Source of the DNA: Escherichia coli
GTDB taxonomy: Bacteria; Pseudomonadota; Gammaproteobacteria; Enterobacterales; Enterobacteriaceae
NCBI RefSeq assembly: GCF_050920415.1
Contig: NZ_CP169309.1
Strand: one strand, 5' to 3'
DNA length: 64,000 bases
A program made the translations under genes and the position numbers. Numbering within the stretch: position 1 is the first letter of the stretch; every line of letters starts with the position of its first letter. The notes under the pieces are model-generated. The model did not search any database. It was not told the DNA's origin and saw nothing but the letters and a program-made list of their open reading frames with translations. Positions 13,871-14,057 of this stretch are shown one piece after another.

Positions 13871-14057
13871 TGCCGGATGCGACGCTTGCCGCGTCTTATC
13901 CGGCCTTCGGGATTGCACATGTAGGGCGGATAAGGCGTTCACGCCGCATCCGCCAATGGCGCGGTGCAAGTGCCGGATGCGACGCTTGCCGCGTCTTATC
14001 CGACCTGGGGGATTACACATGTAGGGCGGATAAGGCGTTTACGCCGCATCCGCCAAT
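13871..14057. repeat. Tandem BIME/REP unit (two ~90-bp copies at 100-bp period) inside the eut operon
   Basis: tgccggatgcgacgcttgccgcgtcttatccg...gtagggcggataaggcgtt.acgccgcatccgcc occurs twice, starting at 13871 and 13971, between eutG and eutH. Confidence 0.8.

Follow-up and report, generated by a model that had tools for sequence, protein, structure and literature searches.

REPs of E. coli are grouped by length and arrangement. The y REP is 35 nt long, z1 29 nt and z2 37 nt; GTAG precedes all of them, and they carry an AA-GC bulge (PMC8266576). BIME-2 elements consist of z2 and y REPs in tandem copies with short linkers, while BIME-1 elements combine z1 and y around a long IHF-binding linker (PMC3333891, PMC1187871). 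The CTAC/GTAG motif is needed for binding and cleavage by TnpAREP (PMC3333891). BIME-2 loci have a conserved site in most isolates and show length polymorphism among strains (PMC3333891, PMC1187871). BIME-2 is also published to bind DNA gyrase strongly, with an affinity above that of BIME-1. In transcripts, REPs at other loci were reported to stabilise mRNA and attenuate transcription (PMC1187871, PMC12306157), and they are published to facilitate Rho-dependent termination. BIMEs can give Rho-dependent attenuation (Espeli 2001, as cited in PMC12306157), and a REP located less than 16 nt past a stop codon stalls ribosomes and lowers upstream translation (Liang et al. 2015, as relayed in the same text). 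The naRNA4 model was built on the Y-l-Z2 unit of REP325 (PMC4550694). Two-hairpin Y-Z2 RNAs together with HU condense DNA, and it is their structure that matters, not their sequence (Qian 2015, PMC4550694).

The window, by which we mean the whole 64,000-nucleotide stretch of E. coli DNA analysed here, contains a tandem array at 13871-14057 for which Tandem Repeats Finder returned a period of 100, 1.9 copies, 94% matches, no indels and a score of 339. The two repeat copies, 13868-13957 and 13968-14057, are 90 nt each, offset by 100 nt and 93% identical. Upstream lies eutG (12682..13869, plus strand), a full-length match to the NCBIfam equivalog NF011998 with 889.6 bits, and its stop codon is the TAA at 13867-13869. 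Downstream lies eutH (14086..15312, plus strand), which matches the equivalog NF011665 over its full length with 873.3 bits. Beyond these flanking ORFs the neighbours are EutE and EutJ upstream and EutA downstream. A sequence-only reading of the window had proposed a tandem BIME/REP duplication with a 100-bp period between eutG and eutH, and Tandem Repeats Finder, NCBIfam and Rfam all bore this out.

The eutG-eutH spacer (13870-14085) measures 216 bp and is the widest gap in the eut operon, as that reading had also noticed. The gaps were taken from the annotation of E. coli strain MFDS1022581, which is 100% identical to the window across 13600-14350 (751 bp) and in which the whole eutSPQTDMNEJGHABCLKR operon is annotated, including eutG. 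From eutS to eutR they are 12, -26, -4, -4, 38, 106, 11, 10, -11, 216, -4, 11, 20, 9, 12 and 45 nt. Besides the 216-nt gap, there are gaps of 106 nt (eutM-eutN), 45 nt and 38 nt and eight of 9-20 nt. The description of the remaining operon as "otherwise overlapping" was overstated, since overlaps occur at 5 of the 16 junctions. K-12 MG1655 has the same element, with two units in a 216-bp gap (NC_000913.3 2568108-2568323).

Four REP cores were identified in the spacer on alternating strands, at 13875-13901 (plus), 13928-13951 (minus), 13975-14001 (plus) and 14028-14051 (minus). Elsewhere in the window REP cores were solitary and scattered only. A longer REP consensus pattern matched both plus-strand (z2) copies and gave no match in 100 dinucleotide-preserving shuffles, indicating that the repeat is not a chance match. 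The "~90-bp palindromic units" of the sequence-only reading are indeed two near-identical copies 100 nt apart, but each unit is made of two distinct REP hairpins in inverse orientation, z2 followed by y.

The first REP (13871..13908, plus strand) is of the z2 type and is read here as an inverted copy (iREP). It matches the consensus with one mismatch, has the core GGATGCGACGCTTGCCGCGTCTTATCC, folds into a hairpin of -22.8 kcal/mol and has its 3' CTAC motif mutated to CTTC. A z2-to-y linker (GGGATTGCACAT, 13909..13920), read from the sequence as the stretch from z2's CTAC side to the GTAG side of y, leads to the second REP (13921..13955, plus strand), which is of the y type and 35 nt long. This REP has the minus-strand core GGATGCGGCGTGAACGCCTTATCC, a 5' GTAG on the plus strand and an AA/GC internal mismatch; its hairpin (-20.9 kcal/mol) contains a 2x2 internal loop and was aligned to the Y hairpin of Rfam naRNA4. 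The y-to-z2 linker that follows (ATGGCGCGGTGCAAG, 13956..13970) was aligned by Rfam to the linker named 'l' in REP325/naRNA4 (Qian 2015) and exceeds it by about 4 nt. The third REP (13971..14008, plus strand) is the second z2 copy and matches the consensus with three mismatches. Its 3' end is mutated, reading CCGACCTGG in place of CCGGCCTAC, so that CTAC has become CTGG, and its stem is therefore weaker (-16.8 kcal/mol). The second z2-to-y linker, again delimited from the sequence, is GGGATTACACAT (14009..14020), and the fourth REP (14021..14055, plus strand) is the second y copy, with a hairpin of -20.9 kcal/mol and the loop TTTA compared with TTCA in the second REP.

On the plus strand the y copies read GTAGGGCGGATAAGGCGTT(C/T)ACGCCGCATCCGCCA, are 35 nt long and fold into stems of 7 bp and 4 bp separated by a 2x2 loop. 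The z2 copies are 37-38 nt long, start with TGCCGGATGCGACGCTTGCCGCGTCTTATCCGGCCT and have an upper stem of 5 bp with a 5-nt loop; they align to the Z2 hairpin of RF02564. The Y-linker-Z2 module at 13924..14005 (plus strand) scored 73.4 bits with Rfam RF02564 (naRNA4), whose gathering score is 59.5; the match has E = 2e-13 and spans model positions 1 to 77 of 77, and in this alignment both hairpins are aligned and the linker carries a 4-nt insertion. Downstream of the array, and outside the repeats, is the eutH translation-initiation leader ATAAATAACAACTAACAGGGAGTAAAGGCG (14056..14085, plus strand) with the Shine-Dalgarno sequence GGGAG at 14073-14077. The 3' part of this leader is kept across genera (46-48 species-level spacers compared).

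The BIME-2 features of y and z2 REPs, alternating orientation, tandem copies with short linkers and a shared, length-polymorphic site were all found at this locus, and the element is the same as that of K-12. With high confidence, we identify the feature as a BIME-2 of two tandem 100-bp units, each consisting of z2 and inverted y, giving four REP hairpins (REP doublets, or 'REPINs'). It shares with the BIME-2 of Gilson, Bachellier and Hofnung the inverse y/z2 arrangement, the short linkers, the tandem and extragenic position and the strain-variable copy number, and differs in nothing essential; in this strain both eut z2 copies lack CTAC (CTTC, CTGG). A BIME-2 cluster is already known in kind and at the eutG-eutH locus. 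In contrast, BIME-1 or RIP elements (y and z1 with the IHF-binding L linker) share only the inverted REP pair with it. The long REP of the eut array has the 37-38 nt of a z2 and not 29 nt, its linkers measure 12 and 15 nt, the units are in tandem, and the IHF consensus WATCAANNNNTTR was absent from the spacer and linkers on either strand; lacking an IHF site, the element is not a BIME-1. The complement of GTAG, CTAC, is gone from both z2 copies here and is canonical in other strains, so current TnpAREP mobility on the z2 strand appears doubtful in this strain.

Several other described systems resemble the eut array in part. The Y-linker-Z2 two-hairpin module is shared with REP325/naRNA4 (RF02564; Qian et al. 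2015), but at eut the linker has about 4 nt more and the units number two against six, and the eut array is in an inducible operon whereas REP325 lies between yjdM and yjdN. Compared with the Rfam naRNA4 consensus, the eut y copies also have G-C for C-G at stem pair 6-33. Like a REPIN, each 87-nt z2-linker-y unit of the eut array can be folded as one long imperfect hairpin; REPINs, however, were defined in Pseudomonas (Bertels and Rainey 2011, as cited in PMC8266576), and the eut units are tandemly arrayed. Stop-codon REPs such as that of nrdA-nrdB (Liang, Rudd, Deutscher 2015) have in common with the eut array a stem close to a stop codon, here 2 nt past it. Such proximity is not distinctive of eut, as about half of the REPs of Liang et al. 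qualify (260 of 496, as given in PMC12306157). The eut array also has REP hairpins on the transcribed strand between two cistrons, as does malE-malF; unlike malE-malF, the eut locus has natural alleles without these REPs. The malE-malF element is reportedly an intercistronic REP stabiliser, known from Newbury and Higgins.

The sequence-only reading had suggested a comparison of repeat copy number among strains, and this number was found to vary from one to five units within E. coli. Using megablast, the locus was found in 5425 of 5426 complete E. coli genomes. For copy number, 59 systematically sampled chromosomes were sorted into classes by spacer length, and between one and three members of each class were checked by sequence. 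Two units in a 216-bp spacer, as in the window, K-12 and ST131, were most frequent (24/59, about 41%), followed by one unit in 116 bp (FORC_028; 19/59, about 32%), three units in 316 bp (EC24, S87 and O104:H4; 7/59, about 12%) and five units in 515 bp (KTa008; 2/59, about 3%). Three of the 59 chromosomes, of O55:H7/O157:H7, had a 99-bp spacer with a decayed allele in which the first REP has an internal deletion. In another four, represented by WCHEC000837, the spacer was 169 bp and without REP, containing instead a different GC-rich dispersed repeat. This 169-bp allele was present in 384 of the 5426 genomes (7%) at a coverage of at least 80%, LF82 included, and megablast located its repeat at a median of six places in each genome. 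No Rfam family matched the 169-nt allele, whose repeat may resemble 'box C'.

The periods were more similar within arrays (95.5% identity) than between strains (92.0%); when labels were permuted, the observed value was attained in 0 of 2000 trials. These values are from gapped alignments, the ungapped version having been discarded because it was distorted by 1-nt indels. Some variants were common to all units of an array, namely CCAGCC in K-12 and EC24, CTACAGG in KTa008 and GGGTGG/CCACC in Escherichia MOD1-EC7003. Such likeness within arrays is the pattern expected from recent unit duplication or gene conversion, and it fits published BIME-2 behaviour.

The junction was also compared in species-representative genomes with EutH, where one scan gave 50 loci, 48 of which yielded a eutG-eutH spacer. 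Escherichia species had a y/z2 array of 116 to 578 nt; two cryptic Escherichia lineages have a truncated first z2, and their first stem begins some 15 nt after the stop codon. In six Citrobacter species the spacer was empty, a 27-nt sequence without a hairpin (ATACACATATGACAGGGAGTGAAGGCT), and in a Pluralibacter MAG and Yokenella it was 32 nt. One REP was found in S. enterica diarizonae (67 nt) and C. sedlakii (60 nt). C. youngae, C. werkmanii and C. portucalensis shared an inverted pair of REPs, 119 nt long and arranged the opposite way, while another pair of 123 nt occurred in C. koseri, C. gillenii and Pseudocitrobacter vendiensis. Klebsiella species had Klebsiella-type REPs (170-216 nt). 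The spacers of Hafnia, Buttiauxella and Morganella, in which EutG is about 57% identical, were 34-48 nt long and most contained a small stem of 5-6 bp. Wherever the spacer was occupied, the insert followed the eutG stop and preceded the conserved leader (..AAATCAYAAATGACAGGGAGTRRRGGCT-ATG), which points to this slot as a recurrent landing site for the host's own REP family. Geometry leaves the insert little choice but to lie close to the stop codon, since the ancestral spacer is otherwise taken up by the conserved eutH leader and has almost no other free position. A hairpin of some kind was present at the junction in about 85% of the species-level genomes examined. This occupancy, which includes the small stems of Morganella, Buttiauxella and Hafnia, could reflect selection for structure here.

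On the mRNA strand the four hairpins have predicted energies of -22.8, -20.9, -16.8 and -20.9 kcal/mol in order, so that the transcription unit contains stable hairpins on its transcribed strand. For the region as a whole the folding energy is -102 kcal/mol (z = -3.7 versus dinucleotide shuffles). The z2 and y of one unit can also pair as a single long imperfect hairpin, which is the minimum free energy structure of unit 2 and of one-unit alleles. The stem of the first REP begins at 13872, 2 nt past the TAA at 13867-13869, and thus lies within the 16 nt from the stop of a translated gene used by Liang et al. This stop-codon adjacency is the most specific mechanistic feature of the locus and was absent from the sequence-only reading. 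The Shine-Dalgarno sequence of eutH had a predicted unpaired probability of 0.46 in the window allele, and of 0.26-0.55 over all BIME alleles, which makes it partly accessible by prediction.

Signals for termination or initiation were searched for as well. No U-tract or T-run follows a hairpin anywhere across 13870-14085; two terminator-like matches were found, and both are within eutH (14103-14121). No sigma-70-like promoter was detected in 13400-14500. The C/G ratio of the spacer was 0.87, with G above C, and it contained no C-rich, G-poor 78-nt window of the rut-like kind; the spacer is therefore a poor Rho loading site. The sequence-only reading had considered the repeats possible mRNA stabilisers or partial terminators that could set differential expression. 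As a general property of REPs this holds, but neither a U-tract nor a Rho loading region accompanies the repeats at eut.

Selection on the stems was evaluated from sequence variants. The distinct z2 variants showed 96% pairing and one compensatory cell, and their covariation was not in excess of shuffled controls. In the y stem one clear compensatory event was found, C7-G32 to U-A in Escherichia MOD1-EC7003. A second candidate is the G-C for C-G at pair 6-33 relative to the family consensus, for which a consensus row was used that agrees with the Rfam consensus. One or two compensatory y changes thus give weak support to stem maintenance, with nothing specific to eut implied.

Our literature search returned no report on REPs at the eutG-eutH junction, and the supplements of PMC3333891 and PMC12306157 contain no eut entries. 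Published expression data are available for two strains. In AIEC LF82, which grows on ethanolamine as nitrogen source, the induced RPKM values were 147 for eutJ, 168 for eutG, 514 for eutH, 223 for eutA and 358 for eutB (PMC6379400). We rejected these values as a test of the BIME as a terminator, since LF82 carries the 169-nt alternative repeat. In EHEC EDL933 the fold changes were 3.87 for eutG and 3.42 for eutH, with means of about 3.9 upstream and 3.4 downstream (PMC6199705). These near-uniform values are relative and come from the O157:H7 lineage, which had the decayed 99-bp allele in the sampled genomes, and are weakly informative. As genes on both sides are co-induced in LF82 and EDL933, the spacer is not an operon boundary.

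Taken together, the array is most likely a selfish or neutral set of REPs that the operon tolerates because the site is permissive, and we hold this account of its identity and origin with high confidence. It would be a member of the genome-wide REP family recognised by the E. coli REP-associated transposase TnpAREP (RAYT). It would occupy the sole permissive point of the spacer, between the eutG stop and the short eutH RBS leader, and unit duplication and deletion would expand and contract it, giving one to five units across strains. The rather unlikely alternative is a selected cis-regulator, a stabiliser and/or partial terminator setting the ratio of eutS-eutG to eutHABCLKR. Stable hairpins within the transcript, a first stem 2 nt from the eutG stop, a slot that holds a REP or hairpin in most of the Enterobacterales examined, and published stabilisation and attenuation by REPs elsewhere would all suit a regulator, as would the slightly lower fold changes downstream in EDL933. 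However, the stop-codon closeness is accounted for by geometry, the unit number ranges from one to five within E. coli, the U-tract and C-rich rut-like region are lacking, and z2 covariation is not above the shuffled control. Relatives with an intact eut operon have the slot empty (the 27-nt spacer of six Citrobacter species), decayed (O157:H7/O55:H7, although all eut genes are co-induced in EDL933) or replaced by an unrelated repeat (7% of E. coli genomes, among them LF82, in which eutH exceeds eutG, 514 vs 168 RPKM). This argues against a dedicated, required regulator, and the array would accordingly not have been built as one.

A role in DNA or nucleoid organisation, either as a high-affinity gyrase site or through a naRNA4-like RNA that with HU bridges REP cruciforms, is compatible with a tolerated REP array but in itself decidedly unlikely. 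It would draw on the Rfam naRNA4 match above the gathering score, the condensation by Y-Z2 RNA and HU (Qian 2015) and the gyrase affinity of BIME-2 above that of BIME-1. The Rfam model, though, is close to a generic BIME-2 module, so the match means family resemblance and not function. Moreover, the effect was demonstrated for REP325 only, the spacer RNA would be made only under eut induction, and many strains dispense with the locus or have it replaced. An intrinsic terminator or operon boundary, or an internal eutH promoter, might be expected from the widest gap of the operon and its GC-rich hairpins; the missing T-run after the hairpins, the missing sigma-70-like site in 13400-14500 and the co-induction of both sides in published RNA-seq make all of these extremely doubtful. 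There is next to no chance that the 66-codon ORF at 13870-14070, which appears in the ORF list directly after the eutG stop, encodes a small protein. It is made wholly of REP sequence, no Shine-Dalgarno precedes it, and its length changes with the allele (12, 29, 66 or 84 aa), as a period of 100 bp is not divisible by 3. On these grounds the ORF was judged spurious.

A tolerated REP array may still affect expression. By analogy with described REPs, the array would be co-transcribed within the polycistronic eut mRNA, and since its first stem is 2 nt past the eutG UAA, terminating ribosomes are predicted to be hindered and the yield of EutG lowered. The hairpins are also predicted to block 3'-to-5' exonucleases, which would stabilise the upstream eutS-eutG RNA fragments, and read-through into eutHABCLKR might be attenuated to a modest degree in a factor-dependent way. 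Translation of eutH is predicted to be independent of eutG, through its own exposed Shine-Dalgarno sequence. At the DNA level the array may act, like other BIME-2 elements, as a preferred DNA gyrase site. Judging from these parallels, we give about an even chance that the array has any measurable effect on expression, and the net effects, on EutG yield and on how the eut mRNA is processed, are probably modest, with none of them essential. From its distribution the array looks dispensable.

For annotators, neither the 66-codon ORF nor a 'naRNA4 gene' should be called at this locus. As a discovery the array has little weight, because BIME-2 clusters, their length polymorphism and generic RNA and DNA effects have been described since the 1990s. 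The natural allelic series (empty, decayed, one to five units, unrelated repeat) is a possible experimental system at one intra-operon junction, and it could be used to measure the effect of a REP array on a polycistronic mRNA and on a gene whose stop codon abuts the array. The activator gene eutR is the last in the operon and, in Salmonella, depends partly on read-through from the main promoter. It is very improbable that unit number (zero to five, plus the replacement allele) works as a heritable tuning knob for the eut operon. If it did, attenuation or RNA stability dependent on copy number would shift the ratio of enzyme to lyase as well as the gain of positive feedback through EutR, and E. 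coli lineages would differ in their induction thresholds for gut ethanolamine.

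The allele carried by the window was rare, since only 2 of 5430 records matched it at 99% identity or more over 751 bp. In its BIME-2 (window 13871-14057), unit 1 was similar to the terminal unit found in other strains (CCTTC), and unit 2 to one from Escherichia sp. E1V33 (CCTGGGGG). In the O55:H7/O157:H7 lineage a decayed allele of 99 bp was found (871-969 in L005, the eutG-eutH locus of a genome of that lineage), with an internal deletion in the first REP and several substitutions in the y copy. A scan for REP cores identified the eut cluster as the sole multi-REP array in the 64-kb window. 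Solitary REP-like cores were located at 503-528, 37411-37436 and 38485-38508, all on the minus strand, and an RtT RNA (Rfam RF00391) was matched on the same strand at 55593-55718, where the score of 51.6 bits exceeded the gathering score of 45.

A different dispersed repeat took the place of the BIME between eutG and eutH in 7% of the complete E. coli genomes (384 of 5426), among them that of AIEC LF82. It was located for example at 871-1039 in locus L006 and at 4769-4937 in the LF82 locus (L062). This repeat was GC-rich, about 140 nt long and contained ..CCCCTCGCCCCTTTGGGGAGAGGGTTAGGGTGAGGGG.., and no family in Rfam was matched by it. In its predicted fold the repeat pairs with the Shine-Dalgarno sequence of eutH, for which the unpaired probability was 0.03.

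Outside Escherichia, the eutG-eutH spacer was 40-48 nt in Morganella, Buttiauxella, Pluralibacter gergoviae and relatives. A small GC stem of 5-6 bp, such as GCCTGCGCGACAGGC, was present in each of these spacers approximately 10 nt 5' of the Shine-Dalgarno sequence, with loop sequences that differed among the genera (loci L037-L050, L056 and L057, directly upstream of position 2501 or 2450). A single E. coli-type BIME unit was also found between eutG and eutH in a metagenome-assembled genome labelled 'Citrobacter sp.' (locus L011, contig DXKH01000140.1), whose EutH was 100% identical to that of the window. This locus is probably Escherichia DNA that was wrongly labelled or wrongly binned.

Between eutR and hemF the window carries two minus-strand genes (21350-22970), one for a hypothetical protein of 105 aa and one for a DUF1963 protein of 420 aa. 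In K-12 eutR presumably adjoins hemF directly. The cryptic prophage CPZ-55, which adjoins eutA in K-12 MG1655, was absent at this position of the window, where eutA and eutB are adjacent with a gap of 11 nt (16712-16724).

The second largest gap within the eut operon was the 106 bp between eutM and eutN (window 10037-10142). Within it a terminator-like hairpin of 10 pairs, 6 of them G-C, was identified on the plus strand at 10044-10069, followed by TCTCTCCTTT. This hairpin may act as an attenuator or a stabiliser downstream of the major shell gene.
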